From an uncultured Gammaproteobacteria bacterium (GTDB taxonomy: Bacteria > Patescibacteriota > Patescibacteriia > UBA1558 > 2-01-FULL-52-15), in contig CAYOCJ010000001.1 in assembly GCA_964402565.1 (NCBI GenBank), forward strand, positions 504,802 to 568,801: a DNA stretch of 64,000 bases. Reading direction: 5' to 3'. Of this stretch, positions 20,409-64,000 are shown one piece after another. Every line of letters starts with the position of its first letter. Position 1 is the first letter of the stretch. The notes under the pieces were generated by a model. That model did no database searches. It saw nothing but the letters and a program-made list of their open reading frames with translations, and was not told the origin of the DNA. The position numbers and the translations under genes were made by a program.

Positions 20409-21740
20409 TTAATCCACTGATCCTGAAAACATCGGTATCCCTAAACGCCGCCGTTTCGTCTCATCCTTGAATAATTGGGTCATGCGCCTCGGCGCATCGC
20501 CCCGTGCACCCAAATGTTGAGAAAAATTATGTGCCTGAAAGCTCGAGGCAAGATACACCACATGCTTCCCGTAATAGCCCGCGAGCTCATCCATGCCTTT
20601 ATATACATAGGATAATTTCTCAGCGCGCACGCTGGCGCCGAATAGATCCATCTGATGCACATCATCAGTAGTCAAATCCAATAGAACCACGCCGGTCATA
20701 CGGTAGCGGAGCGTCGGGTCAAAAAAATCATCAAAAGAATCTTCAAGAACCTTAATGATCTCATTTGGATACGCGCTTGCCCGCGTTAGTTTCGCTGATA
20801 TGGCATATTCCTTGAATTCCTGAGTTCTCAATACGAAAACTACTTCTTTAGCAGCCTGATGATGGCGCCGTGCTTTAATACAGGCATTTTCAATGTTCTT
20901 GGACAGTTGCGCGAGCACGAATGTACGCTCGGATGAGGGGGGAGTAAAGGTCTTCATCTTTTGAATAGAATAATATGTTTCATGTTCATCCGTCAGAAGA
21001 CTCATAACTGAGATGCCGTTCAGCTCCTGCCATATCTCAATAAATGGTTTTGAAAAATGTTTCCGCACCCAAGCCTCCGGACGCTCTGCAAAGGCAAGGG
21101 CAGTGGTAATGCCATACTTCGCCAACAGGGCAGTAGTCTGAGGCCCGATGCCCCAAACGTTGCCAGCAGGGAGGTCCCGCAAAAAATCCTGACGGGTCCG
21201 GGCGCTGATAAGCGTCAGGCCATGGGGCTTATTCCACTTTGAAGCAACCTTTGCCAATACCTTGGTTGGCGCAAGGCCGATGGAAAAAGTAAAACCAAGC
21301 TCGCGCGTCAGGTCGCTATCGATCTTTTCAGCGATCTGGCGATAGGAACTATGCAATGGCCTTCGCATACCGGTAATGTCCGCGAAGCACTCGTCGATCC
21401 CGTACTCTTCGAGGTCCGAGGTATAACGGCGCACAATGCTATAAAATCGTTTCGAAAGGAGACTATAGGTCTCATAATCAGACGGTATGATGATCACCTG
21501 TGGAATAAGTTTTTTGATCTCAGCAAGGCTCATGCCGCGAGTAGCGCCTTGTGCTTTTGCCTCATAGCTGATGCTTGAAGCAATACCGCGTTCTTTGCCG
21601 GTGACGACCGGCTTGCCTTTCAATTTGAAGTTCAGGGACTGCTCGCAGGACGCAAAAAAAGCATCTCCATCGATATGGAGAATCGCGCGCGGGAATGACG
21701 AATGTGCTCCAAATGGCATACGATCAATATTTACGGACAA
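20409..21740 (-). CDS. dinB: Y-family DNA polymerase (DNA polymerase IV / DinB-UmuC family)
   Basis: N-terminal ILHIDGDAFFASCEQ (the Y-family catalytic DxD/FF motif). The UmuC-like core overlaps the lexA stop by 17 nt. Confidence 0.88.
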   Translation of the reverse strand: MSVNIDRMPFGAHSSFPRAILHIDGDAFFASCEQSLNFKLKGKPVVTGKERGIASSISYEAKAQGATRGMSLAEIKKLIPQVIIIPSDYETYSLLSKRFYSIVRRYTSDLEEYGIDECFADITGMRRPLHSSYRQIAEKIDSDLTRELGFTFSIGLAPTKVLAKVASKWNKPHGLTLISARTRQDFLRDLPAGNVWGIGPQTTALLAKYGITTALAFAERPEAWVRKHFSKPFIEIWQELNGISVMSLLTDEHETYYSIQKMKTFTPPSSERTFVLAQLSKNIENACIKARRHHQAAKEVVFVLRTQEFKEYAISAKLTRASAYPNEIIKVLEDSFDDFFDPTLRYRMTGVVLLDLTTDDVHQMDLFGASVRAEKLSYVYKGMDELAGYYGKHVVYLASSFQAHNFSQHLGARGDAPRRMTQLFKDETKRRRLGIPMFSGSVD

Positions 21741-22290
21741 CCGCTTTCACGATCGCTGCGATCTTAAGCTCATCTTTCGGCACAATGGGCGGATACTTTG
21801 GGTTACCAGGCTGCAGCCATGTCTTGCCTTTTTCTTTACGCAAATACTTCATGGTCCAGCCAGTGTCTATTTCAGCAATAACGATATCGCCATCACGAGC
21901 ATCGCTGCGCCGCTCGACCAAAACCATATCACCCGGCATGATGCCTGCCTCGATCATTGAATCGCCTGATACTTTAAGAAGATAGGTTGCATCGCGATGT
22001 TCTATCAAATACTCATCCAGGCTCATAGTATCCGTAAGCTCTTCTTCAGCAGGGGACGGAAAGCCAGCTTCGACAGCACCCAAAAGAGAAATAGACCCCA
22101 TGAGCTTATTGGGGATAAGTTTACCCTTCGCATCCTTGCTCAATATGCCCTCAGAAAGGTAGTTCCTAACCAATTTATAGGCCGAATTCTTTGATTTAAA
22201 GCCCATTAGACGCATGATCTCAGCATAACTGGGCATCCGACGGTTCTGCCTATAAAAATCGTTTATTTTGTGAATTCTTGAAATGGCCAT
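21724..22290 (-). CDS. lexA: LexA repressor (wHTH + S24 peptidase)
   Basis: N-terminal winged HTH (YAEIMRLMGFKSKNSAYKLVRNYL). S24 Ser-Lys dyad context (KVSGDSMIEAGI ... K). The start was trimmed to MAISRIHK at 22290, because the track's upstream TTG start lies inside the -35 box. Confidence 0.85.
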   Translation of the reverse strand: MAISRIHKINDFYRQNRRMPSYAEIMRLMGFKSKNSAYKLVRNYLSEGILSKDAKGKLIPNKLMGSISLLGAVEAGFPSPAEEELTDTMSLDEYLIEHRDATYLLKVSGDSMIEAGIMPGDMVLVERRSDARDGDIVIAEIDTGWTMKYLRKEKGKTWLQPGNPKYPPIVPKDELKIAAIVKAVVRKY

Positions 22291-22296
22291 AGATAT

Positions 22297-22326
22297 AGTA
22301 TAGGTGAACGTTCGTTCACCTGTCAA
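22297..22326 (-). promoter_or_regulatory. lexA promoter: -35 TTGACA, 18-nt spacer, -10 TATACT; transcript probably leaderless or with a very short leader
   Basis: Minus strand reads TTGACA-ggtgaacgaacgttcacc-TATACT. The ATG lies 7 nt after the -10. Confidence 0.6.
22302..22321. promoter_or_regulatory. LexA operator (SOS box): 20-bp near-perfect palindrome AGGTGAACGTTCGTTCACCT, GAAC-N4-GTTC (Cheo-box) type
   Basis: 9-bp inverted arms. It is located exactly in the lexA promoter spacer. The GAAC-N4-GTTC core matches Gram-positive LexA boxes. Confidence 0.7.
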
Positions 22327-22372
22327 ATGCCAGGCCTTAGCAAAGGGTTTTTACTTTTTCACTGATAGAGAA

Positions 22373-23098
22373 TCAGATCTTTTCAGCACAGACGATCAGG
22401 GAGAGTCCAATGAGGGGACTCAGAATGCCGTTCATCAGTTGAGCAAGCGGCAGCATCTGTTCATACAGCTTTACGCCAGAACGGGGGATGCTTGTTTTCT
22501 GGGCTATACCACCCATGAACGCCCAGCCAGGTATGCCGAATGGATTAAAGTAGCGAACGCTGAGGGGTTTCATAGAGTGCCTGGTGACCAGATCAATGCA
22601 TGATTGTTTCGTATATCTGCGTTCATGGCCGAGAGCCTTGTCGAGATGATTAAAAAGCATAGGCAGCGCAGGAACGAATAGCACAATGCGGCCACCAGGT
22701 TTCAGTAATGATCGCATGCTTTCGACAGCAATATCATGATGACGGATATGCTCGAGAACATTGATCGCAAAGATACTGTCAATAGTTCCTTGCAGCCCTT
22801 GGACTGCCGAACCGGCCGCATCGAGCGGCACATTCAAATCAATACGATGTGAGCCGAGATAATTTGGATTCCCCCGGAAGCGCTTATCAAGATCATCGCA
22901 GTAGACCATTTCATAATCGCTCAAAAAACAACGAAACTCCTTAAGCGCCAACTCTGAAAAGGTGCCGGTCCCGCTGCCGAATTCAAAAACTGTCCCTTTC
23001 AGAAATGGCCGTATAGCGCTATACATCCACTGGTTCAGCTTGTGAGCGTCTCCCAAGGTTTCAAGCGTCGTGTGGCCGGTATATTCGAAATGCTCCAT
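22373..23098 (-). CDS. Class I SAM-dependent methyltransferase (small-molecule/protein MTase type)
   Basis: Motif I VFEFGSGTGTFS and motif post-I/II spacing typical of Methyltransf_11/23. Confidence 0.7.
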   Translation of the reverse strand: MEHFEYTGHTTLETLGDAHKLNQWMYSAIRPFLKGTVFEFGSGTGTFSELALKEFRCFLSDYEMVYCDDLDKRFRGNPNYLGSHRIDLNVPLDAAGSAVQGLQGTIDSIFAINVLEHIRHHDIAVESMRSLLKPGGRIVLFVPALPMLFNHLDKALGHERRYTKQSCIDLVTRHSMKPLSVRYFNPFGIPGWAFMGGIAQKTSIPRSGVKLYEQMLPLAQLMNGILSPLIGLSLIVCAEKI

Positions 23099-23103
23099 GG
23101 TAT

Positions 23104-24048
23104 TTATTTTTTTAGGGGATGAAATTTCTGATGCTCTGATTCAGCATAACGATCTGACGCATGTACATAGCGCGTCGTCGTATCAAGTGATTCATGGCCG
23201 AGGAGGACTTGAATTGCGGCCGGGTTAGCTCCTGATTCTGCCAAATAGGTTGCAAAACCATGCCGCAGGCTATGCGCGCTCGTTGGCACATTGATATTCA
23301 AAGCTTCCCGATACTCTTTGATCTTTGCCTGCAAATAATTGGATGAAATGCCTTTGAAGCTGCTGCCGGTATTTCTGCCGCGCAATGGTACCCACAGATG
23401 CGGCAAGCGATCGCCGCGAGTCTTCAAATAGCGGTCGACCTGTTTCAAAGCGCGCTCAGTCAGATACACAAAACGCTCCTTTTTGCCTTTTCCTTTGATA
23501 AAGATCTTGCCGGACTTATAATCGATCTGGTCGCGTTTCAGGCTGAGGAGCTCAGAAATACGCATGCCGGTAGCAAACAGCATCTCAAGCATAGCGCGAT
23601 TGCGCAAACCAACATGTGCATCTTTTTCAAGAGCCTCAGGAGACTCAATGAGCTTGATGAGTTCATCAAGTTCAGCGACTCTGCCATGTTTCTTGTCAGT
23701 GCGGATCAATTTGATCGCCTCGGGCGCCATCGGAACCTTCTCATCCATGTCGATCATAAACTTCAGATAATTCCGTAGTGATGAAAGCATGCGGTTAACT
23801 GAAAAGCTTGAAAGCTTGCCATGTACCTTAGCGCCTTTAGCAGTACGCCTATTGATAGAGTAGAGGTAGGCTTTATAGTCCTCAATAGTAGATTTCTTGA
23901 TAGAGGAGAACTTGGTCTTTTGATACGTCAAAAAATTCTCAAACGTTGTTAAGTCGCGCTCATAATTCAAAAGAGTTTCTTCAGAATAATTGTTGCTCTG
24001 CAAGAATCTGAGAAAGGTCTCTTTTTTTGGAAGCGGGGAATCAGGCAT
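23104..24048 (-). CDS. Tyrosine site-specific recombinase, XerC/XerD-type
   Basis: N-terminal SAM-like core-binding domain (ETLLNYERDLTTFENFL). Catalytic R..HxxR..Y signature (HSLRHGFATYL ... LLGHESLDTTTRYVH). Confidence 0.8.
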   Translation of the reverse strand: MPDSPLPKKETFLRFLQSNNYSEETLLNYERDLTTFENFLTYQKTKFSSIKKSTIEDYKAYLYSINRRTAKGAKVHGKLSSFSVNRMLSSLRNYLKFMIDMDEKVPMAPEAIKLIRTDKKHGRVAELDELIKLIESPEALEKDAHVGLRNRAMLEMLFATGMRISELLSLKRDQIDYKSGKIFIKGKGKKERFVYLTERALKQVDRYLKTRGDRLPHLWVPLRGRNTGSSFKGISSNYLQAKIKEYREALNINVPTSAHSLRHGFATYLAESGANPAAIQVLLGHESLDTTTRYVHASDRYAESEHQKFHPLKK

Positions 24049-33383: not shown

Positions 33384-35033
33384 TTAATTAGAGGCGCCGC
33401 TTTGATCCGCGCCCTCGGGATCATTTAACGGCTGCGTTGCATCATCACTGGCAGCACTCACATCAGCAAGACGCTGCAATACAAAATCTCTATCCAGGGC
33501 AGACAGGAACCATCCTGCCTGGGGGCCAGAATTTTTTCCCAAGAAACTTATGTAGATCGCGGAAAAAAGATCAGCAGGAGCAATGGCAAGCGTTGCCTTT
33601 ACCTCATGGATTTGCGTATGCAGCTCTTCACCAGTGAGTTCGTCATGTTCGCGAATATACTCGTAGATAGAACGCAACGACTGACGCTGTAAGGAGGTGA
33701 ACTCTTTTGCACCTTCGGGCGGTGCTTCTTGAATATCAAATTTATACTTTTCAGGGCTATACTGGGACAGCCATATTTTTGCATAGCGGGCCCTATCCTG
33801 ATACTCGCTCGCATCTGCATCGGTCAGTTGAGAACCTTTCATAGACGCAACTTTCTTCGCAAGATCAATGTGAGGCATTTGCACCAGATACGCTATCTGT
33901 GAGAAACGCGGCAGAAACGCTTCCTGAATCATGTTCCTGGACGAAGCCGGATAACATAATGGAAAAACCGATGTCCAATCTGATGCAGCGTTCTTAAAGT
34001 ATTCGCCTGCAATGGTGTCGAAATGATCATAGAGAATCGGAATGGTGTCTCCATAGGGTTCAAAGTCAATCTCATGCTTCGGCTCCTTCATCATAAGAAA
34101 GCGCAGCATGCGCGTCGGCAAAAGATCAGCAATTTCTTTTGCTGATGACCCTTTGCCTTTTGACGAGGACATCTTCGCACCACCGAGGGTAAAAAAATTA
34201 TAGGGAATATCGAGCGGCTCAGGGAACTGATAGATCTCTTTCAAAATTCGGCGCGCGATATCTCGCGATCCGCCTTTCGTATAGTGATCCTTTCCTCCGC
34301 CTTCCAGATGCACGCCTAGCACCATGAACTTTGCCGCCCATTCTACTTTCCAAGGCAATTTCGCTCGTCCGTCAAATGGATCTACTTTGCCAGAATGGCC
34401 GCAACCGACGGCCCACTTCACCAAATCAGCACTGCACGCATAAGATACTTGCTTGCCGTCCCATGCGGTCACCTTTGTAGTGCCTACTTTGCGGCATTGC
34501 TCACAGATGACCTGTAAGGGAAACCAATCATCGCCCTTATCAGATCCAGAAACCTCTTTATATATTTTTCTTATCTTGTCTGCATTGTCCAATGCAAGGC
34601 GAATGGCATTATTATATTTCCCGCCCAAATAAAGCGTACTCGAGCGATAGTACTCGGGCGTAAAGCCGGTATGTTCAACAGCAACCATAAACTCCTGCGC
34701 CCAGTACTCTGCATAGTTCGGTGCTGTCGGATCCGGTGAGGGTACCTCATACAAAGGACGCCCCATATAGGGACGATAGAGCTCCTGGTCAAGGTAGACC
34801 GGCAAACCGTCCATTGGGTCAAAATCATTCACTTCGAATAGGTACTTGTTTGGAATCTTCGCTTCGGTCAGCACATCTGAAACTATGCCATGAATGACGA
34901 CGCCTCTGAGCGAACCCACATGTACTCTGCCGGACATCGTTTTTTCATCGCGAATAATAAGAGGCTTGCCAGCGGCAATTTCTTTTGCAAAACGATTTTT
35001 AGCTGAATCTCGAAGTTTATATCCCCAAAACAT
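33384..35033 (-). CDS. lysK: Lysine--tRNA ligase, class I (LysK type)
   Basis: SGRVHVGSLRG (HIGH-equivalent) and KMSSSKG (KMSKS-equivalent), as in archaeal-type class I LysRS. Confidence 0.8.
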   Translation of the reverse strand: MFWGYKLRDSAKNRFAKEIAAGKPLIIRDEKTMSGRVHVGSLRGVVIHGIVSDVLTEAKIPNKYLFEVNDFDPMDGLPVYLDQELYRPYMGRPLYEVPSPDPTAPNYAEYWAQEFMVAVEHTGFTPEYYRSSTLYLGGKYNNAIRLALDNADKIRKIYKEVSGSDKGDDWFPLQVICEQCRKVGTTKVTAWDGKQVSYACSADLVKWAVGCGHSGKVDPFDGRAKLPWKVEWAAKFMVLGVHLEGGGKDHYTKGGSRDIARRILKEIYQFPEPLDIPYNFFTLGGAKMSSSKGKGSSAKEIADLLPTRMLRFLMMKEPKHEIDFEPYGDTIPILYDHFDTIAGEYFKNAASDWTSVFPLCYPASSRNMIQEAFLPRFSQIAYLVQMPHIDLAKKVASMKGSQLTDADASEYQDRARYAKIWLSQYSPEKYKFDIQEAPPEGAKEFTSLQRQSLRSIYEYIREHDELTGEELHTQIHEVKATLAIAPADLFSAIYISFLGKNSGPQAGWFLSALDRDFVLQRLADVSAASDDATQPLNDPEGADQSGASN

Positions 35034-35626: not shown

Positions 35627-36259
35627 TTAAACCGAACGTTTATCGCTATTTGATGACCTGATTTCTTTCGACAGTATCTTGCAAGCATCGTCGAACTGAT
35701 AGCAATAGACTTCGCCCGTACCAATTTCAAGATCGCCTATGGTATCATCAGTGATTTGTTCGAGGTGTTTCACAAGTGCCCGCAAAGAATTACCGTGAGC
35801 AACGATCAATACATTTTTTGCCTGAAGCAAATCATTTTTAATCTGCTCCTCATAGTACGGGACTACCCTCGCATGCACGTCTTTCAATGATTCGCCTTCA
35901 GGTATCGGCACATCCCAGCCGCGGCGTAATGCCTGGAACGCCTCGTCGCCTATCTCTTCCTTGACCTGCCATTTATTTTTCCCGGTATGAATACCGTAAT
36001 GCCGTTCATTGATCGCATGGTGGCGCCTGGTTTCTAACTCTTCGATACCAAGCTCTTTCAAAATTTCAGCGAGTGTTTGATGGGTGCGGCGTAGTGCTGA
36101 CACATAAGCGATGTGGATCGTTTCGTTTTTCAGGGCTTCCCCAGCGGCTCGCGCCTCAGCAATGCCTGTTTCTGATAAGTCAACATCAGTATGGCCGGTC
36201 CATTGGCCGAGATCATTCCATGTTGATTTGCCGTGGCGGACTAGAAAAAGGAAGGCCAT
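35627..36259 (-). CDS. gpmA: 2,3-bisphosphoglycerate-dependent phosphoglycerate mutase (histidine phosphatase superfamily)
   Basis: LVRHGKSTWN...GQWTGHTDVDLSETG matches the dPGM RHGE/QWN signature. Confidence 0.82.
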   Translation of the reverse strand: MAFLFLVRHGKSTWNDLGQWTGHTDVDLSETGIAEARAAGEALKNETIHIAYVSALRRTHQTLAEILKELGIEELETRRHHAINERHYGIHTGKNKWQVKEEIGDEAFQALRRGWDVPIPEGESLKDVHARVVPYYEEQIKNDLLQAKNVLIVAHGNSLRALVKHLEQITDDTIGDLEIGTGEVYCYQFDDACKILSKEIRSSNSDKRSV

Positions 36260-36261
36260 AG

Positions 36262-37566
36262 CTATTGCAACGCTGATGCCCCGGCATAGACGGCGCCAGC
36301 ACCTAATGACTGCTCTATGCGCAGGAGCTCGTTATATTTCGCAATACGGTCGGTACGAGACATTGAACCTGTCTTGATCTGGCCGGTGCCAAGACCAACG
36401 GCAATATGCGCGATGCTTACATCCTCGGTTTCGCCCGAGCGATGCGAGATAATAGCTTTCCAATTCGCCTTATGCGCCATATCGACTGCTTGTATGGTTT
36501 CAGTCAAAGTGCCGATCTGGTTCACTTTCACCAGGATTGCGTTTGCAGCTTGTTCGCGTATACCGCGTTCCAAAAATTTTACATTGGTAACCAGCAGATC
36601 ATCACCGACCAGCTGCATACTCTTGCCAAGCTTTGCTGTCATCTGCGACCATCCGGACCAATCATCCTCAGCTAAACCATCTTCAATGGATCGGACAGGA
36701 AATTCTTTTGAGAAATTTTCATACAAAGCGATCATTTCTGCGCTGCTATGTGCGGCATGCTCTGTCGCCAAGTTATATACTCCATCTGAAAAAAGTTCGC
36801 TTGCTGCAACATCCAAAGCAAATGCAATATCCGTACCAAGTGTATAGCCAGCTTTCGCAACTGCCTCAGCAATGAGCTCCAGAGCTTCTCTATTCCCCTT
36901 CTTGACCGCTGGCGCATAACCCCCTTCATCGCCGACTGTCGTGCCATACCCCTTTGTTTTCAAAACCCCCGCAAGCGCATGAAAGACCTCAGCCTGCATC
37001 TGTATCGCCTGTCTGAATGTTCTTGCACCCACAGGCATGATCATGAATTCCTGAATATCTGTGGAGCCTGCTGCATGCTGACCGCCATTGATGATATTGC
37101 ACAGAGGCAGCGGTAAGCACATCTCGCGTTTCACACTGGATACATCGCGAATATACTGAAAGAGCGGAACTTTCTTTGACAGAGCAGCTGCTTTTGCTGC
37201 TGCGAGTGAAACAGCGAGGATCGCATTAGCCCCCAGATTGCTCTTCGTTTCAGTTCCGTCTAATTCGATCATTTTCTGATCAATGACCGTTTGCTGAGAC
37301 GCGTCGGTGCCGATCAAAGCACGGCTGATCGGGCCTGTTACATTATCGACTGCTTTCAAAACGCCCTTGCCACCGTAGCGTGACATATCTCCATCGCGGA
37401 GCTCATGAGCCTCATGTGAGCCAGTAGACGCTCCTGAAGGAACCGCTGCCCTCCCGAGGCTTCCGTCATCCAAGATAACATCCGCCTCTACCGTCGGGTT
37501 TCCGCGTGAGTCTAGAATCTCCCTTGCTTGGATTGATTTAATTTTCATGCCGTTCAAACGTAACAA
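36262..37566 (-). CDS. eno: Enolase (copy 1)
   Basis: [32 protein letters not shown] and KYNELLRIE motifs. Confidence 0.93.
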
Positions 37567-37690
37567 TGCTTATAAGAAGATAAGTATAGCTAGACACTTT
37601 TACATTGTCTAGCTGGAACGAACGTACAAAATATATGATAAGGCTTAGCAAACTGCCATGCCTGAATCTTGCAGTGTACCGGCAGGCAAA

Positions 37691-47730: not shown

Positions 47731-48501
47731 TTATTCAGCTGATGGTGCTTCTTCATTTTTTTCTGCTTTGTCTGCTTTCTCAGCCTTGGCCTTCTTCTTT
47801 GATTCCTTTACCGGCTCTGCTCCTGCAATTGCTGAGAACTGTTCCTGCAAGATGGCGACGCATTTCTGGACTGCATCTTCAGCGCTCATTGTGCCGTCAG
47901 TCGTTACTGATAAAACTACTTTCTCATAATCAGTACGTTGGCCGACTCGCGTATGCTCGATATTGAAACCGACATTAGCAATCGGGCTGAAGATCGAATC
48001 GATTTGCATCAAACCAATATCCTTCTTATCAACCACACGCTCCTCGACTGGCTCGTAGCCAATGCCTTTCTTAACCACAATTTCCATTGAAAGATCAGCC
48101 TTTTTATCCGTCAGAGTAGCGATAACCATATCAGTATTGATGATCTCAACATCAGCATTCTTCTTTATGTCTGCAGCGGTGACTTCCTTTTCGCCTTTTG
48201 CATGCAATTCAAGCGTTACCGGCTCATCACTGTGGCAAACGACGCGGAGTTTCTTCAAATTCATCATGATCTGTACGATATCTTCCTTCACATGATCCAG
48301 CGTATCGTATTCATGCTGTACGCCATTGACCTTGATGGCACATACTGCTGCGCCTGGCAATGATGATAACAGCACGCGTCGAAGCGCATTGCCTACCGTC
48401 GTTCCATAGCCAGGATAGCAAGGCTCAATGACGACCTCAGTCATATTGTTCTTGCCTGCAGTGTATTTCACCGTTGTTGGTGTTGGAATTGCGCTCGACA
48501 T
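47731..48501 (-). CDS. rpoA: DNA-directed RNA polymerase alpha subunit, NTD only (no alpha-CTD; Lys/Ala/Glu-rich tail)
   Basis: The alpha-NTD core is EPCYPGYGTTVGNALRRVLLSSLPGAAV. The protein is 256 aa and ends in ...KESKKKAKAEKADKAEKNEEAPSAE with no helix-hairpin-helix CTD. The next gene (rplQ) starts 6 nt downstream, so there is no room for a CTD. Confidence 0.85.
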   Translation of the reverse strand: MSSAIPTPTTVKYTAGKNNMTEVVIEPCYPGYGTTVGNALRRVLLSSLPGAAVCAIKVNGVQHEYDTLDHVKEDIVQIMMNLKKLRVVCHSDEPVTLELHAKGEKEVTAADIKKNADVEIINTDMVIATLTDKKADLSMEIVVKKGIGYEPVEERVVDKKDIGLMQIDSIFSPIANVGFNIEHTRVGQRTDYEKVVLSVTTDGTMSAEDAVQKCVAILQEQFSAIAGAEPVKESKKKAKAEKADKAEKNEEAPSAE

Positions 48502-57951: not shown

Positions 57952-59547
57952 CTAGAGTAGCGATATCCCGATAATCTCATCGGGTTTTTTTAACCCCATT
58001 ATTTTTAAAATGGTCGCAGTTATATCCGGCAAAATACCGGCAGATGAAGCCATACTCAAATCGTGTCCACGAATACCATAGGAGACATTTTTACCCTGCC
58101 ATGGTTTACCAATAATGATAAAGGGCACCGGATTATTTGAATGCATCTTATCAACCGCGCCAGTTTGTAAATTAAAGAGGCTTTCGGCATTACCGTGATC
58201 TGCAGTAATCAAAACCGCACCATCATAGGCAAGGGCAGTATCGACGATCTGACCTATGCACTCATCCAGCACCTGAACGGCTTCGATCGTTGCCTGCAAA
58301 TTTCCGGTGTGGCCTACCATGTCTGCATTGGCAAAGTTAACGACGATAAAGTCATATTTCGACTCGCGGATCTCGGATATCAACCGAGCCGTGATTTCCC
58401 GGGCGCTCATTGCTGGTTTTTGATCATAGGATGCAGATTTTACTGATGGTATCAAGATATGCTCCTCGCCGGGATATTTCTTCTCCTGGCCTCCGTTAAA
58501 AAAATAAGTCACATGCGCATATTTTTCTGTTTCTGCGATATGCAGCTGGGCTAAGCCTGCGTCGCTTATGACTTTAGCCAGAGGCATCGTAACTGCTTCC
58601 GGAGGAAAGGCGACAGGCACCGGCAAATCTTTTTCATACTCGGTCATTGCAAGAAAATGCAGATCCTGCATATACACACGTTCAAATTTATTAAAACCCG
58701 GAAGTACAAAAGCTTTCGTTAACTGACGTGCCCGGTCGGCGCGAAAGTTAAAGAAGACAACACCATCCCCATTTGAGATCGTTGCCACCGGTTTTCCATG
58801 ATCAGTGATGACCGTCGGCACTAATTGCTCGTCATAGACGCCCTTATCGTATGACTCCTGAATGGCCTTCTGCGGATCGTCAGACATGACATCAGCAACA
58901 CCCTGTACCATAGCGCGATACGCTTTCTCAGTGCGATCCCACCTATTATCCCTGTCCATGGCATAGAAACGGCCGGCAAGCGTAGCGATTTTTCCAATGC
59001 CTAATTTTTTCAACACATCCTGCAGCTTACTGACAAAGGTCAATCCGCTATTGAGCGGCGTATCTCTGCCGTCGAGAAAACAATGTATAAATACCTTCTC
59101 CATTTTTTGCTGTTCGGCCAATTCTAACAGCGCATACAGGTGCTCATTGAAGCTATGCACGCCTCCCGAGCTGACCAAACCTATGATATGCAATGCCGTG
59201 CCGTTCTTTTTGACCGTCTTGTACAGCTCGAGAAATTCTTTATTCTGAAAAAAAGTTCCGTCTGCGATCGATTTTGAAATACGCGGCAGGCTCTGATACA
59301 GCACTCTGCCTGATCCAAGGCTCAAGTGGCCCACCTCCGAATTGCCTACCTCGCCCCACGACAAGCCTACTGCTTCCCCTGCGGCCTGTATGGACATGGC
59401 CGGATAATTCGTCAAATACGAATCCATGTTCGGCGTCTTGGCAAGACTGATGGCATTAGCCCGGGATGGCGGCGCAATGCCCCACCCGTCGAGTACGATC
59501 AGTACCACAGGGCGCGGTCGGACAAATGGTGCATTCGAGGGTGGCAT
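57952..59547 (-). CDS. gpmI: 2,3-bisphosphoglycerate-independent phosphoglycerate mutase (copy a)
   Basis: VLIVLDGWGI, GNSEVGHLSLGSGR (catalytic Ser) and ITADHGN. Confidence 0.9.
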   Translation of the reverse strand: MPPSNAPFVRPRPVVLIVLDGWGIAPPSRANAISLAKTPNMDSYLTNYPAMSIQAAGEAVGLSWGEVGNSEVGHLSLGSGRVLYQSLPRISKSIADGTFFQNKEFLELYKTVKKNGTALHIIGLVSSGGVHSFNEHLYALLELAEQQKMEKVFIHCFLDGRDTPLNSGLTFVSKLQDVLKKLGIGKIATLAGRFYAMDRDNRWDRTEKAYRAMVQGVADVMSDDPQKAIQESYDKGVYDEQLVPTVITDHGKPVATISNGDGVVFFNFRADRARQLTKAFVLPGFNKFERVYMQDLHFLAMTEYEKDLPVPVAFPPEAVTMPLAKVISDAGLAQLHIAETEKYAHVTYFFNGGQEKKYPGEEHILIPSVKSASYDQKPAMSAREITARLISEIRESKYDFIVVNFANADMVGHTGNLQATIEAVQVLDECIGQIVDTALAYDGAVLITADHGNAESLFNLQTGAVDKMHSNNPVPFIIIGKPWQGKNVSYGIRGHDLSMASSAGILPDITATILKIMGLKKPDEIIGISLL

Positions 59548-59549
59548 AC

Positions 59550-61106
59550 CTACTTTCGTATGAGACTCGACCCTGTCATGAGGTCTGGTTTATCAACGTG
59601 CAATAGCTCAAGCAAGGTTGGCGCAATATCAGCGAGGATGCCTTTCTTGCGAAGCTGCAGCTTCGGCCCTTTTTTGATGATAATGCAGGGCACGGGATTT
59701 TTTGAGTGTTCAGTGTCTATCTCACCGGTTGTTCTATTTACCAGTTCCTCTGCATTGCCGTGATCTGCAGTAATGCATATCATACCGTTCTTTGCGAGAA
59801 CCGCTGCAACCATTTTACCAAGACAATGGTCTACGTACTCTGCTGCTTCGATGGTAGCCGGTACGCTTCCCGTATGCGCCAGCATGTCTGCATTTGAAAT
59901 ATTAACCCCGATAAAATCATACCTGTCGCTACTTATTGCTTTCAAAAATTGGCTGGTGATAGACGGCAGGCCCATTTTCGGAGTTTTTTTGTATGAAAGC
60001 ACGTCCGGTGATGGGACCATGATGCGCTTTTCGCCTGCGACCGGCCGGTCATAACCGCCATTAAAGAAATAGGTCATGTGCGCGTATTTCTCGCTCTCAG
60101 CGATATACAATTGCCGGAAATTGCTCAGCACGACCGGCAAGGTGTCCACGATGTCGCGGCTCGGATATGCAGTGAGAATCGTTTCCAGATCCGGGCCAAA
60201 ATCAGTCATGGCGACGAAAAAAACATTTTTTAATACTTTCAAGCGCTTAAATGCATGTGCATTGACCTTTTCAAAATCAAATTGCGTAAACGGCTTTGAG
60301 AGCTGCCGAGCGCGATCAGACCGTAAATTGAAAAAAACAACACTGTCCTTGTCGCTTATCTTCCCCACCGGCTTGCCATTTGAGGTGATCACGGTCGGCA
60401 GAATGAACTCATCGGTCTCGCCGCGATTATACGCATGCAGAACAGCATCCTCGGCTGAACTCGCTGTCTGGGGCGCTACGCCGCGAACCATTGCATCGTA
60501 AGCTAATTGCGTATGCTTCCAGTCCTTTTTCCTGTCCATCGCATATGCTCTGCCGATAATAGAAGCTATGGTGCATTGTGCGTTGAACAAATTCTGATAC
60601 TTGCGAAGAAGCCGGATCGCAGAATACCGGGAGCTGTCCCGTCCATCCGTAAACAAATGCAGATAAATATTCTTAACCTTTTGGTAGCGGAAAAATGTAA
60701 TAAGCGCTATCAGATGATCAGGCTGCGAATGTGCGCTTTGTCCGTTCGACAAGAGCCCCATCAAATGCACATTCGATTTATACTTGCGGGCATGTTTTGC
60801 TGCCTGCAAAAAAGCAGGATTCTTGAAAAAAGTTCCGTCTGAGATCGAGCGCGAGATCATCACGCTGTCTTGTTCGACAATGCGTCCTGCTCCGATATTC
60901 ATATGGCCTGCTTCGGAATTTCCATCCTGGCCAAGCGGCAATCCCACATGGACCGATGAAGCCAATAATTCTGTGTATGCGTACTTACGCTTAAACTCAT
61001 CCATATGGGGCGTTTTTGCCTGATAGAGCGCATTGCTCTCATCATGGGGGCCGATCCCCCAGCCATCAAGAATAAATAGCACAAATGGTTTGCTAGTTTT
61101 TGCCAT
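59550..61106 (-). CDS. gpmI: 2,3-bisphosphoglycerate-independent phosphoglycerate mutase paralogue (copy b, ~35-40% identity to copy a)
   Basis: FVLFILDGWGIGP, GNSEAGHMNIGAGR and ITADHGNAE. The start was trimmed to MAKTSKPF at 61106. Confidence 0.85.
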   Translation of the reverse strand: MAKTSKPFVLFILDGWGIGPHDESNALYQAKTPHMDEFKRKYAYTELLASSVHVGLPLGQDGNSEAGHMNIGAGRIVEQDSVMISRSISDGTFFKNPAFLQAAKHARKYKSNVHLMGLLSNGQSAHSQPDHLIALITFFRYQKVKNIYLHLFTDGRDSSRYSAIRLLRKYQNLFNAQCTIASIIGRAYAMDRKKDWKHTQLAYDAMVRGVAPQTASSAEDAVLHAYNRGETDEFILPTVITSNGKPVGKISDKDSVVFFNLRSDRARQLSKPFTQFDFEKVNAHAFKRLKVLKNVFFVAMTDFGPDLETILTAYPSRDIVDTLPVVLSNFRQLYIAESEKYAHMTYFFNGGYDRPVAGEKRIMVPSPDVLSYKKTPKMGLPSITSQFLKAISSDRYDFIGVNISNADMLAHTGSVPATIEAAEYVDHCLGKMVAAVLAKNGMICITADHGNAEELVNRTTGEIDTEHSKNPVPCIIIKKGPKLQLRKKGILADIAPTLLELLHVDKPDLMTGSSLIRK

Positions 61107-62373
61107 GTAATTCCCGTTCAATTTCCAGCAATCGATTATACTTTGCAATGCGTTCGCCGCGGGCAGTAGACCCTGTTTTAATAAAATCCGCATTAACACC
61201 TACGGCAAGGTCTGCAATAAATGTGTCCGGGGTCTCACCGCTTCGATGCGAAATAGCAGTTGCATAGTTGTGCTGCTGTGCAAGCTGAATGCAAGATAGC
61301 GTCTCCGTTAATGTCCCGATCTGATTCAACTTGATCAAAATACTATTTGCGGCCCCCTGGTCGATGCCTTTTTGCAGCCTTTTAACATTGGTCACAAAAA
61401 GATCATCGCCGATCAGCTTTAGTTTTTCATGATGCGCCTTGGATCGTGCGGTATACTGTTGCCATGCCCGCCAGTCTTCCTCGGCAAAAGGATCTTCAAT
61501 TGCGCTAATAGGATACTCGCGAATAAGCCCGTCATAGTATTCGGCCAGTTCAGATGAATCCATTTCTGTATGCTCAAGCTGTAACTTATATTTTTCTATT
61601 TCATGATCATAGAAAACCGATGATCCTGCGTCGATGCCAAGGGCAATCTCGCTTCCCGGCGTATAGTTGGCTTGCTCAATGGCATGCAGCAGCAGATCAA
61701 AGACGCGACGATGATTAGGAAAATTCGGCGCATATCCGCCTTCATTGCCCAGATCGGTATCCATATGTTCTGAAGTTAATACTGATCCTAGTGCATGAAA
61801 AATTTCACTGCCCTGCTCTAAGCGTTCAGCAAACGCTGTTGCATGATGCGGAATGATCCAGAATTCCTGGATATTGAGATTCGTCGCAGCATGCATACCT
61901 CCGTTGATGACATTGATAAGCGGAGTCGGCAAGTGATAGTCCTGATCGTCGCTTTCGCTCAGCGATCTAATATACCTATAGAGCGGCACGCCGAATGCTT
62001 GCGCAGCAGCACGAGCACAAGCGAGCGAAACGCCTAAAATCGCATTTGCTCCTAAGCGGCTTTTATTTTCAGTGCCATCAAGACCTATCATCAATTGATC
62101 CAGCCTCTGTTGATCATTCACATACATACCTGAAAGATGGGCAGCGATTTCGTTATTTACATTTGCAACAGCTTTCAAAACCCCTTTACCTCCGTATCGC
62201 TTCTTGTCGCCGTCGCGCAATTCAAATGCTTCAAAGGTGCCAGTAGACGCGCCCGACGGCACTGAAGCAGTTGCCTGCATGCCATTTTCCAAATGGACCG
62301 TTACTTCAAGCGTAGGATCGCCGCGGGAGTCCAAGATTTCCAATGCCTCGATTTTTTTTATTTTTTTTGACAT
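61093..62373 (-). CDS. eno: Enolase (copy 2; SHRSGETPD variant of the SHRSGETED motif)
   Basis: ILDSRGDPTLEVTV, SHRSGETPDTFIADLAVG and KYNRLLEIE. The start was trimmed to MSKKIKKIEALEI at 62373, 3 nt after the pgk stop. Confidence 0.9.
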   Translation of the reverse strand: MSKKIKKIEALEILDSRGDPTLEVTVHLENGMQATASVPSGASTGTFEAFELRDGDKKRYGGKGVLKAVANVNNEIAAHLSGMYVNDQQRLDQLMIGLDGTENKSRLGANAILGVSLACARAAAQAFGVPLYRYIRSLSESDDQDYHLPTPLINVINGGMHAATNLNIQEFWIIPHHATAFAERLEQGSEIFHALGSVLTSEHMDTDLGNEGGYAPNFPNHRRVFDLLLHAIEQANYTPGSEIALGIDAGSSVFYDHEIEKYKLQLEHTEMDSSELAEYYDGLIREYPISAIEDPFAEEDWRAWQQYTARSKAHHEKLKLIGDDLFVTNVKRLQKGIDQGAANSILIKLNQIGTLTETLSCIQLAQQHNYATAISHRSGETPDTFIADLAVGVNADFIKTGSTARGERIAKYNRLLEIERELHGKN

Positions 62374-62375
62374 GA

Positions 62376-63539
62376 TCACTTCTTCTTCACCAGCGGTCGC
62401 AATGCAGGGCACGGTGTTCCCTGCAAGAACGACAGCATGGCTCCTCCTCCTGTTGAAACAAAATGAATCTTTTTCTCCGCTTTTGCAGCAAGCACAGCTT
62501 TTACTGTTTCGCCGCCACCGATATATGCTTTAGCGCGCGCTTTCATTAGAATGTGGACCAAAGCATGCGTTGCCTTCGCATAACGCGGGTCTTCAAAGTA
62601 ACCCAATGGCCCGTTCCAGATCACGGTACGCGCTTTTTGGATAACCTGCTCATACAAAGCGATGGTATCAGGACCAAGGTCCAGTATCATCTCACTTTTA
62701 CGAACGCTCCCGACTGCAGAGACGCGCGCTTTTGCAGTTAGCGATGAGGATACCAAGGCATCGACCGGCAGTTTCAGCTTATTGCTCATGAGATTCTTGC
62801 TCCAGGCAAGCATATGCGGTTCAATTTTTGATCTACCGACATCGTAATTCAATGCTGCAAGGACATTGTTCGCCAAAGCACCGCCCAGGAGCAAATACTC
62901 AACTTTTCGGAGCATGCGCTTCAGTAAAACGATCTTTGATGAAATTTTATTACCCCCTACAATAGCTACGATAGGATGTGCTGCATGACTCAGCAATCCA
63001 TAGAGACGCTCGACCTCATACTGGAGCAAAAAACCCGCATAGGACGGCAAATGACGAGTCACGGCGACCATGGATGCATGATTTCGATGTATATTGCCGA
63101 ATGCATCATCGACATATACATCTGCTAAAGCAGCCAATTCTTTACCGAGCCTGGGATCATTTTGTTCTTCCCGGATATCAAATCGAATGTTTTCAAGGCA
63201 TGCTATCTGGCCGGGTTTTAGTTTTTTTGACCATGCAGCATAGTCGTCCATGCTTCCGTTCCAAAAGGCTATCGGCTTTCCCAAAAGCCTCGTCAGAGCA
63301 GCGACTATCGGCTTCAGGCTCAAGTCATGATCATGGCCATGCGGCCTGCCACGATGCGACACCACGATAACTCTCGCTTTTTTCTCGAGGAGATATCGTA
63401 TAGTCTTGAGCGAGCTCTCTAGCTTCCACAGATCATCAGGCCCTATCTTCCCCTTTGTCACTGATGCATTCAAATCGCATCGAAGCAAAACCCGTTTGTT
63501 TCGAAGTAGCAGCACAGAACGTATGCTTCGCAATTTCAT
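62376..63539 (-). CDS. pgk: Phosphoglycerate kinase
   Basis: VLLRCDLNA...VIVVSHRGRP N-domain and C-domain GGGA/GGGE motifs. Confidence 0.9.
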   Translation of the reverse strand: MKLRSIRSVLLLRNKRVLLRCDLNASVTKGKIGPDDLWKLESSLKTIRYLLEKKARVIVVSHRGRPHGHDHDLSLKPIVAALTRLLGKPIAFWNGSMDDYAAWSKKLKPGQIACLENIRFDIREEQNDPRLGKELAALADVYVDDAFGNIHRNHASMVAVTRHLPSYAGFLLQYEVERLYGLLSHAAHPIVAIVGGNKISSKIVLLKRMLRKVEYLLLGGALANNVLAALNYDVGRSKIEPHMLAWSKNLMSNKLKLPVDALVSSSLTAKARVSAVGSVRKSEMILDLGPDTIALYEQVIQKARTVIWNGPLGYFEDPRYAKATHALVHILMKARAKAYIGGGETVKAVLAAKAEKKIHFVSTGGGAMLSFLQGTPCPALRPLVKKK

Positions 63540-63940
63540 TATTCGGCGATTGAAATTTTAGTTATACCCGGCAGATCCGCCAAAAAACATAAATGATTCA
63601 CTGTTGTATCAGCAACCGCATAATCCAGGATCCACGTATTGATATCAAGCATGACGCCGGCTGTTGCAAAATAGTCCTTCACATCCTGCGACGGCTTCTC
63701 TGAAAAATGAATCAACAACTGGATCGGCGCTGTGGAGCTCTTTCTCGCATTCAGAAGTTGTTTCTCAAATAAAGGACTTTTCGCGCAACTCAAATACGAA
63801 CCGATCGGCTTCTCAGTACTATACAAAAAATCCAAAGAAAATCGTTTAGCATCTTTTCCTAAATAAAAAAGAGCCAGCATAACGAGCACGATAATGGCTA
63901 TGACAAACTTATATTTTTTTGCTAATTGCAGGATTGCCAT
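63539..63940 (-). CDS. Hypothetical membrane-anchored protein
   Basis: N-terminal TM segment VIAIIVLVMLALFYL. No recognised motif. It overlaps the pgk start by 1 nt. Confidence 0.4.
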   Translation of the reverse strand: MAILQLAKKYKFVIAIIVLVMLALFYLGKDAKRFSLDFLYSTEKPIGSYLSCAKSPLFEKQLLNARKSSTAPIQLLIHFSEKPSQDVKDYFATAGVMLDINTWILDYAVADTTVNHLCFLADLPGITKISIAE

Positions 63941-64000
63941 ACAGTCCTATACCTGCATAGTATACCATAATACTGCTGCATGTTTAAACCCAGTCTCTCT

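Follow-up and report, generated by a model that had tools for sequence, protein, structure and literature searches.

The 64-kb stretch of DNA analysed here (hereafter the window) carries six genes of lower glycolysis in two modules about 20 kb apart. We hold it probable, though short of confident, that the genome is a mosaic in which an inherited route through cofactor-independent phosphoglycerate mutase (iPGM) stands beside a laterally acquired route through the 2,3-bisphosphoglycerate-dependent mutase (dPGM), which would give it two catalytically intact routes from 3-phosphoglycerate to phosphoenolpyruvate. According to the open reading frame (ORF) listing all six genes, two for enolase, three for phosphoglycerate mutase and one for phosphoglycerate kinase (PGK), lie on the minus strand. 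All six products matched family models of Pfam and NCBIfam, and the two enolases and three mutases listed in a first-pass annotation of the window were recovered in place. The genes and their associated sites are the following.

63959-63988, minus strand: promoter-like site upstream of the small ORF and the pgk cluster, 9 of 12 positions matched with an extended TG (consensus match only)
63539-63940, minus strand: small ORF of 133 amino acids (aa) with an N-terminal hydrophobic segment and no Pfam match; its stop abuts the start of pgk
62376-63539, minus strand: pgk, phosphoglycerate kinase, 387 aa, PF00162 at 381 bits over residues 12-374
61093-62373, minus strand: eno2, enolase of the CPR cluster-type clade (Candidate Phyla Radiation, CPR), 426 aa, with SHRSGETPD and GNEGG; start backed by homologues
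59550-61106, minus strand: gpmI-B, cofactor-independent phosphoglycerate mutase, 518 aa, the faster-evolving paralogue
57952-59547, minus strand: gpmI-A, cofactor-independent phosphoglycerate mutase, 531 aa, the more canonical paralogue
37583-37611, minus strand: promoter-like site just upstream of eno1, TAGACA-17-TATACT, 10 of 12 positions matched (consensus match only)
36262-37548 (the ORF extends to 37566), minus strand: eno1, canonical-type enolase, 428 aa by the gene call, with SHRSGETED
35627-36259, minus strand: gpmA, short dPGM, 210 aa
35577-35606, minus strand: terminator-like hairpin directly after gpmA, a perfect 14-bp stem in the repeat search (inverted repeat I4, 100% complementary) and 13 pairs in the terminator scan

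Gene identities, catalytic residues and assembly support

The genes within each module are closely spaced, with gaps of 2 nt between pgk and eno2, between gpmI-B and gpmI-A and between eno1 and gpmA, and with an overlap of 14 nt between eno2 and gpmI-B. The small ORF, pgk, eno2, gpmI-B and gpmI-A would accordingly constitute one tightly packed operon whose genes are presumably co-translated, and the eno1–gpmA bicistron would be transcribed separately by means of its own promoter-like and terminator-like sites.

The source of the window is most likely a small-genome bacterium of the Patescibacteria (CPR), kin to metagenome-assembled genomes (MAGs) labelled Candidatus Komeilibacteria by NCBI. 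The gene content of the window is typical of this group (sortase, PilM, class I LysRS and many glycosyltransferases), and identical proteins were found on a 633,461-bp NCBI contig of a Patescibacteria-type MAG, in agreement with the streamlined genome proposed in the first-pass annotation. The best matches of the two modules fall in different CPR lineages, which is what a chimeric assembly or a bin of two CPR organisms would produce. We consider such an artefact highly improbable, however, because both modules are linked not only on the 633,461-bp contig but also on an independently assembled 65,630-bp Logan contig (run SRR12313479), and because GC content and GC skew are even across the window, as is codon usage.

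Eno1 is matched by both PF03952 and PF00113 and scored 621.6 bits with TIGR01060 (cutoff 300). It has all 12 catalytic and metal residues (S41, H158, E167, E208, D246, E289/290, D316, K341, H369, R370, S371 and K392 at E. coli numbering; roles of the metal and acid-base residues according to PMC6863902), and these were invariant in an alignment of its 120 nearest database relatives. The motif SHRSGETED was found in 118 of these 120 Eno1-clade sequences, the E being invariant in the alignment. A scan of the genome collection with Eno1, the patterns of which were too generic, returned Saccharibacteria at 67-69% identity and Proteobacteria and Firmicutes at 56-62%; by this identity to ordinary proteobacterial and firmicute enolases Eno1 can be classed as a canonical enolase.

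Eno2, which is 51% identical to Eno1, scored 570.9 bits with the same model (TIGR01060), and its best match in the PDB was the B. subtilis enolase 4a3r (E = 8e-132). Its nearest relatives are Patescibacteria enolases at 60-76% identity, and it has the full set of 12 catalytic and metal residues, none of which varies among the 120 nearest relatives aligned as members of its clade. The first-pass annotation had correctly read SHRSGETPD in Eno2 and had singled it out as a peculiarity of this copy, but a unique lesion was rejected, since the position occupied by the proline is variable throughout the clade: among the 120 sequences it is S in 36, T in 34, N in 15, I in 13, A in 6, E in 6, L in 4, P in 3, and D, V and C in one each. 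The proline thus appears as one state of a site that is relaxed clade-wide and lies outside the 12-residue catalytic set.

The Eno2 clade has signatures of its own, with GDEGG replaced by GNEGG in 114 of the 120 sequences and QEFM replaced by QEFW in 118. It also lacks conservation at the equivalents of R8, E20, R414 and E417 of yeast enolase, which we take to be inter-subunit salt-bridge residues, and this suggests, at the level of sequence, that the subunit interface of the clade has been rewired. The structure paper on S. aureus enolase places the dimer contacts on β1-β3, α5 and α12, which is consistent with the interface assignment.

The gpmA product is matched by PF00300 (150 bits) and falls in the dPGM subfamily by TIGR01258 (195.1 bits, cutoff 81.7). 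It remained below the cutoff of the equivalog-level dPGM models, the best of which, NF002339 for the 206-aa short form, gave 200.5 bits against 316, and it is therefore best described as a divergent member of the subfamily. All dPGM hallmarks are kept (RHG, N15, T21/G22, R58, E85, Y88, K96, R112/R113 and H155-G-N), a set of residues that we take to distinguish mutases from broad phosphatases; among 71 metagenome homologues each of them is conserved in 61-71. Its best solved relative is the 211-aa phosphoglycerate mutase of S. pombe (1fzt, E = 3.3e-46), which is presumably monomeric. The two proteins agree in length, in catalytic residues and in the absence of the ~25-residue insert of classic dPGMs; the alignment with 5um0, the second PDB match, is split into two segments by a stretch of ~25 residues that gpmA lacks. 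In contrast to the S. pombe enzyme, gpmA is bacterial, is paired with an enolase gene and carries RHG-K instead of RHG-E. As a separate observation, the classic RHG-E is mostly replaced in the short CPR dPGMs, by RHG-K in 32 and by RHG-Q in 19 of the 71 homologues, and the second catalytic His is replaced by Ser in 10 of them.

Both iPGMs match PF01676 and PF06415 and scored well above the cutoff of TIGR01307 (330.65), with 630.8 bits for GpmI-A and 540.3 bits for GpmI-B. They are tandem and divergent, as had been noted from the sequence, although at 43% their identity is slightly above the 35-40% first estimated. The 16 catalytic, metal and substrate positions considered are intact in both proteins and do not vary among the 7 A-type and 123 B-type sequences aligned. 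At G. stearothermophilus numbering they include the nucleophile Ser62, the metal ligands D12, D403, H407, D444, H445 and H462, and the substrate residues H123, R153, D154, R185, R191, R261, R264 and K336, with roles known from the 1ejj structure. Both iPGMs appear to be under purifying selection. The possibility that one copy of a pair is a disrupted pseudo-paralogue was rejected for enolases and mutases alike, because the catalytic residues checked are all intact and are invariant across the clades.

The tandem iPGM cluster in related genomes

Genomic contexts were retrieved for homologues of Eno2 and GpmI-B from MAGs labelled Komeili-, Kerfeld-, Falkow- and "Nomura"-bacteria. The tandem-iPGM cluster was found in six of the seven relatives sampled in this way, with both paralogues kept as separate orthologous groups. 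The order pgk–eno–gpmI(B)–gpmI(A) was observed in L004 (GCA_964422585.1), L006 (Komeilibacteria), L008 ('Nomurabacteria'), L170 (Kerfeldbacteria), L171 (Falkowbacteria) and L172, and in each of these the A-type gene lies immediately downstream of the B-type gene; the L004 contig starts with a partial gene just upstream of eno2, and pgk is unconfirmed there. In the other five, and in L174 (GCA_041661625.1), pgk occupies the same position in the cluster. The genes that follow the cluster, DUF212 (minus strand), NTP_transferase and YceG, are common to the window, L004, L006, L008 and L172. The seventh relative, L174, has a single iPGM of the B-type, which suggests that the A-type enzyme is dispensable.

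An ORF of 124-132 aa stands in the same position before pgk in L006 (1177-1575), L008 (8451-8825) and L172 (3146-3538), and the small ORF of the window is 27-40% identical to the copies in L006 and L008; it may be a conserved first gene of the glycolytic operon. As a side observation, the cluster is followed by genes for a PfkB-family kinase, an ADP-forming acetyl-CoA synthetase or AMP-forming acyl-CoA synthetase, and a NUDIX hydrolase in L173/L174 (GCA_041661625.1, 3507-10720) and in L170 (9584-12553).

Given its conservation in six of the seven sampled relatives, the iPGM cluster can be regarded as the lineage norm in this part of the CPR, and it is best explained by vertical inheritance. 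The relatives of its proteins form a graded series, at 87, 80, 74, 73, 72 … 54% identity for GpmI-B and 76, 73, 70, 66 … % for Eno2. The redundancy had been presented in the first-pass annotation as an anomaly, with the proviso that copies common in close relatives would make it a lineage norm; this applies to the tandem gpmI pair and its cluster, and what stands as anomalous is the coexistence with eno1–gpmA. In comparison with the closest sampled relative, L004, we also observed an identity of only 73% for Eno2 against 86% for each of the iPGMs. Since enolase normally evolves more slowly, the reversal suggests that constraint on the cluster-type enolase has been relaxed in this sub-lineage.

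Identities among the iPGMs were 56-86% within the A-type, 53-86% within the B-type and 43-46% between the types; the Geobacillus enzyme shares about 42-49% with either type. Neighbour-joining with 100 bootstrap replicates recovered the B clade with a support of 100 and the A clade with 68. The two were sisters in 0 of 100 replicates, and their internal branching orders agree. A recent tandem duplication of gpmI was therefore rejected: the identity of 43-46%, the separate orthologous groups and the absence of a sister relationship from all replicates argue against it. With separate clades that are never sisters and branching orders that match, the pair appears to be ancient, derived from either an old duplication or an old acquisition, and to have diverged together with its hosts. 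The phylogenies proposed as a check thus place GpmI-A and GpmI-B apart, and Eno1 and Eno2 likewise in different enolase clades, so that neither pair consists of recent duplicates. A search of a representative library with GpmI-A was discarded as a clue to origin; all other iPGMs score nearer to A than to B, which reflects the faster rate of B.

Why both iPGMs are retained can be answered with low confidence only, a split into isozymes differing in metal, pH or kinetics being the most likely explanation. More speculative, and in our judgement improbable, is an obligate two-enzyme system of GpmI-B and GpmI-A, which might take the form of a heteromer, of a division of labour by metal or pH, or of one paralogue performing a related phosphotransfer that feeds 3-phosphoglycerate from nucleoside salvage into glycolysis. 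The rewired interface of the Eno2 clade could then mark a different oligomeric state, and the pair, if obligate, would constitute a new step or regulatory layer in the minimal central metabolism of the CPR.

A wider form of specialisation would assign one enolase or iPGM to a task outside glycolysis, as a surface adhesin binding plasminogen, as a scaffold of the RNA degradosome or as a phosphomutase with a new substrate, and leave glycolysis to the other copy. The changes near the active site of the Eno2 clade (GNEGG, QEFW), the lost conservation at the equivalents of interface residues, and the retention of two iPGMs over a long divergence, which suggests that they are not equivalent, would fit this explanation. 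We nevertheless give it only a slight chance, for neither the two enolase clades nor the two iPGM clades show any variation at catalytic or substrate-binding residues, and GpmI-B departs from the canonical consensus at just two well-conserved positions (V64A and Y298F), a comparison that gave no sequence sign of a new substrate. Furthermore, Eno2-type enolase is the only type seen in the glycolytic clusters of the sampled relatives and must therefore be metabolic there, and no export- or degradosome-linked feature was identified. Nothing supports the moonlighting role suggested at first. The other suggestion of the first-pass annotation, a different cofactor or metal regime, is true by definition for a dPGM beside an iPGM.

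Origin of the eno1–gpmA pair

A metagenome scan with gpmA yielded 76 loci, 62 of which had enough upstream sequence to be informative, and in 51 of these 62 an Eno1-type enolase lies directly upstream of gpmA on the same strand (median gap 13 nt). The same pair is present in named Saccharibacteria genomes (L014-L016). A canonical enolase gene with a short dPGM gene behind it can thus be regarded as the usual lower-glycolysis equipment of other CPR lineages, Saccharibacteria and Kaiserbacteria among them. Compared with the Saccharibacteria and Kaiserbacteria pairs, the window pair has the same order, strand and spacing, with 67-74% identity in the enolase and 53-68% in the dPGM, and differs in coexisting with an iPGM cluster, whereas no iPGM or PGK gene was found within 10 kb of any of the metagenome eno–gpmA loci.

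The best matches of Eno1 (68-74%) are labelled Kaiserbacteria, Saccharimonadales and Parcubacteria. In a neighbour-joining enolase tree the Eno1 of the window was placed inside a clade of CPR enolases that adjoin a short dPGM (bootstrap 85), the Eno2 of the window grouped with cluster-type enolases, among them those of L004 and Komeilibacteria, and the two groups were separated by non-CPR bacteria. The nearest relatives of Eno1 (74%), found in L010/L011, have near-top relatives of gpmA (66-67%) close by, and such congruent nearest neighbours indicate that Eno1 and gpmA share a history. No relative of Eno1 above 74% and none of gpmA above 68% was found among 5.8 billion proteins and the JGI metagenomes searched.

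Two further observations were made in the course of these searches. An Eno1-type enolase (P0122) adjoining a B-type iPGM (P0288) was considered and rejected as a coincidence after look-up. In L017 (DATHJH010000030.1), a Chloroflexota MAG labelled Candidatus Limnocylindria, an enolase 67% identical to Eno1 is nested in the CPR eno–gpmA clade and is followed by an iPGM, not a dPGM; lateral transfer or a binning error is possible there.

The pair has no close relatives, unlike the graded series of the iPGMs and Eno2, and its nearest matches lie in unrelated neighbourhoods, beside an ECF sigma factor and DUF5666 or beside LMWPc and DUF924; together these observations favour the view that eno1 and gpmA were acquired jointly, as one unit, from a different CPR lineage. 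In the window its neighbourhood is NUDIX…LysRS–SerRS. The lysyl-tRNA synthetase just downstream of the pair (33384-35033, minus strand), which adjoins SerRS, is of class I (PF01921), a class best known from archaea. This agrees with an earlier study in which the enolase phylogeny of the CPR was fragmentary and transfer-prone and lateral movement of the gene between lineages was inferred (Jaffe et al., PMC7304191).

Both modules could instead be ancestral, with eno1–gpmA inherited vertically, lost or unsampled in the relatives and never transferred. Several points weigh against acquisition, and the first three of them also speak for this alternative: (i) in composition, codon usage and GC content eno1–gpmA resembles the rest of the window, with no sign of foreignness, (ii) no repeats, mobile-element traces or insertion scars flank the pair, where only the terminator hairpin turned up, (iii) the relatives are known only as incomplete MAGs and short contigs, on searches of which the absence of close Eno1 and gpmA orthologues rests, and absence in such material is weak evidence, (iv) internal support within the Eno1 clade was weak in the neighbour-joining trees, and (v) the taxonomy of the source is based on synteny and best matches only. 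From the first two points it follows that any transfer would be old or would have come from a donor of similar composition. On the other side, no graded series of close relatives like that of GpmI-B and Eno2 was found for Eno1 and gpmA, the Eno1 of the window is nested among eno–gpmA enolases of the Saccharibacteria and Kaiserbacteria type, and a pgk–gpmI cluster is missing from the 10 kb around every eno–gpmA locus. We therefore regard ancestral presence as unlikely, albeit the most serious of the alternatives considered.

Under the mosaic reading that we prefer, the operon would have been inherited vertically and the eno1–gpmA bicistron gained as a unit by transfer from one CPR bacterium to another. 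The route through PGK, Eno2, iPGM-B and iPGM-A would be metal-dependent and the route through Eno1 and dPGM would require 2,3-bisphosphoglycerate and no metal, the outcome being an isofunctional redundancy in which each mutase route has its own enolase. In E. coli both types of mutase are active and can substitute for each other, and manganese is the metal that suits the iPGM best (PMC2964296). The second module may, by analogy, buffer flux against metal limitation, or the genome may be at an intermediate stage of a non-orthologous displacement still in progress.

Comparison with known systems and significance

Foster et al. 2010 (PMC2964296) found dPGM and iPGM together in 115 of the genomes that they surveyed, only 3 of them smaller than 2.5 Mb. 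The coexistence of the two modules in a genome known from a single contig of ~0.63 Mb runs against this trend of both types being found only in large genomes, and the redundancy is, as first remarked, unexpected for a small genome. The E. coli pair GpmA and GpmM (PMC2964296) resembles the window in that a dPGM and a metal-dependent iPGM coexist and both are predicted to be active; the window differs in the tiny genome, in having two iPGMs instead of one, and in having an enolase for each route. Clustering of pgk, iPGM and eno on one strand is also known from the Firmicute operon gap–pgk–tpi–pgm(iPGM)–eno, and the order pgk…gpmI–eno was seen in the loci L035, L047, L056, L065, L070, L076 and L087. 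In the window, by contrast, the order is pgk–eno–gpmI–gpmI without tpi or gap, the iPGM is represented by two ancient paralogues, and in front stands a conserved, putatively membrane-anchored small ORF.

Paralogous iPGMs were found in 4 of the 702 genomes of the same survey, and never as a conserved divergent pair (PMC2964296). These genomes, which like that of the window have more than one bacterial-type iPGM gene, are those of Desulfotomaculum reducens, Sorangium cellulosum, Acidithiobacillus ferrooxidans and Pseudomonas putida F1 (where the copy is a pseudogene), and of the four cases one was put down to a recent duplication (90% similarity), two to lateral transfer and one to a pseudogene (PMC2964296). 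In contrast to these isolated cases, the pair of the type found in the window, about 44% identical, is kept in tandem across a broad clade. Our literature searches for tandem iPGMs or duplicated lower glycolysis in the CPR found no direct report.

Outside the two modules, the window contains further features of some interest. RpoA (47731-48501, minus strand) is only 256 aa long, and its N-terminal dimerisation and insert domains are matched while no alpha C-terminal domain was detected by Pfam. At 20409-24048 (minus strand) a gene for an S24 (LexA/UmuD-like) peptidase overlaps a Y-family polymerase (IMS) gene, forming a UmuDC-like pair, and a tyrosine recombinase/integrase gene (23104-24048) lies about 0.8 kb from it, beyond a methyltransferase gene; together they may represent a mobile or SOS-type island in a reduced genome. 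The segment 1300-5765 (plus strand) encodes a protein of 1263 aa in which VWA and SpaA (prealbumin-like) domains occur, with a sortase gene after it, and the locus looks like one for a sortase-dependent pilin or adhesin. A tRNA scan and an Rfam scan of the window found nothing.

Each of the glycolytic proteins is an ordinary member of its family. What is unusual is the conserved ancient iPGM pair in a clade of reduced genomes, the Eno2 clade with its relaxed interface and motif positions, and the presence of two lineage-typical modules in one genome. The CPR bacteria are a textbook case of genome reduction, and published surveys found isofunctional enzymes and iPGM paralogues to be rare in small genomes. 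The 'duplicate' glycolytic genes described here are real and conserved and not errors of assembly or binning, which is a lesson for annotation, and the iPGM pair and the enolase clade with the altered interface are targets for biochemistry. If eno1–gpmA was acquired as proposed, the swapping of whole modules would be a concrete route to the patchy glycolytic repertoires of the CPR.

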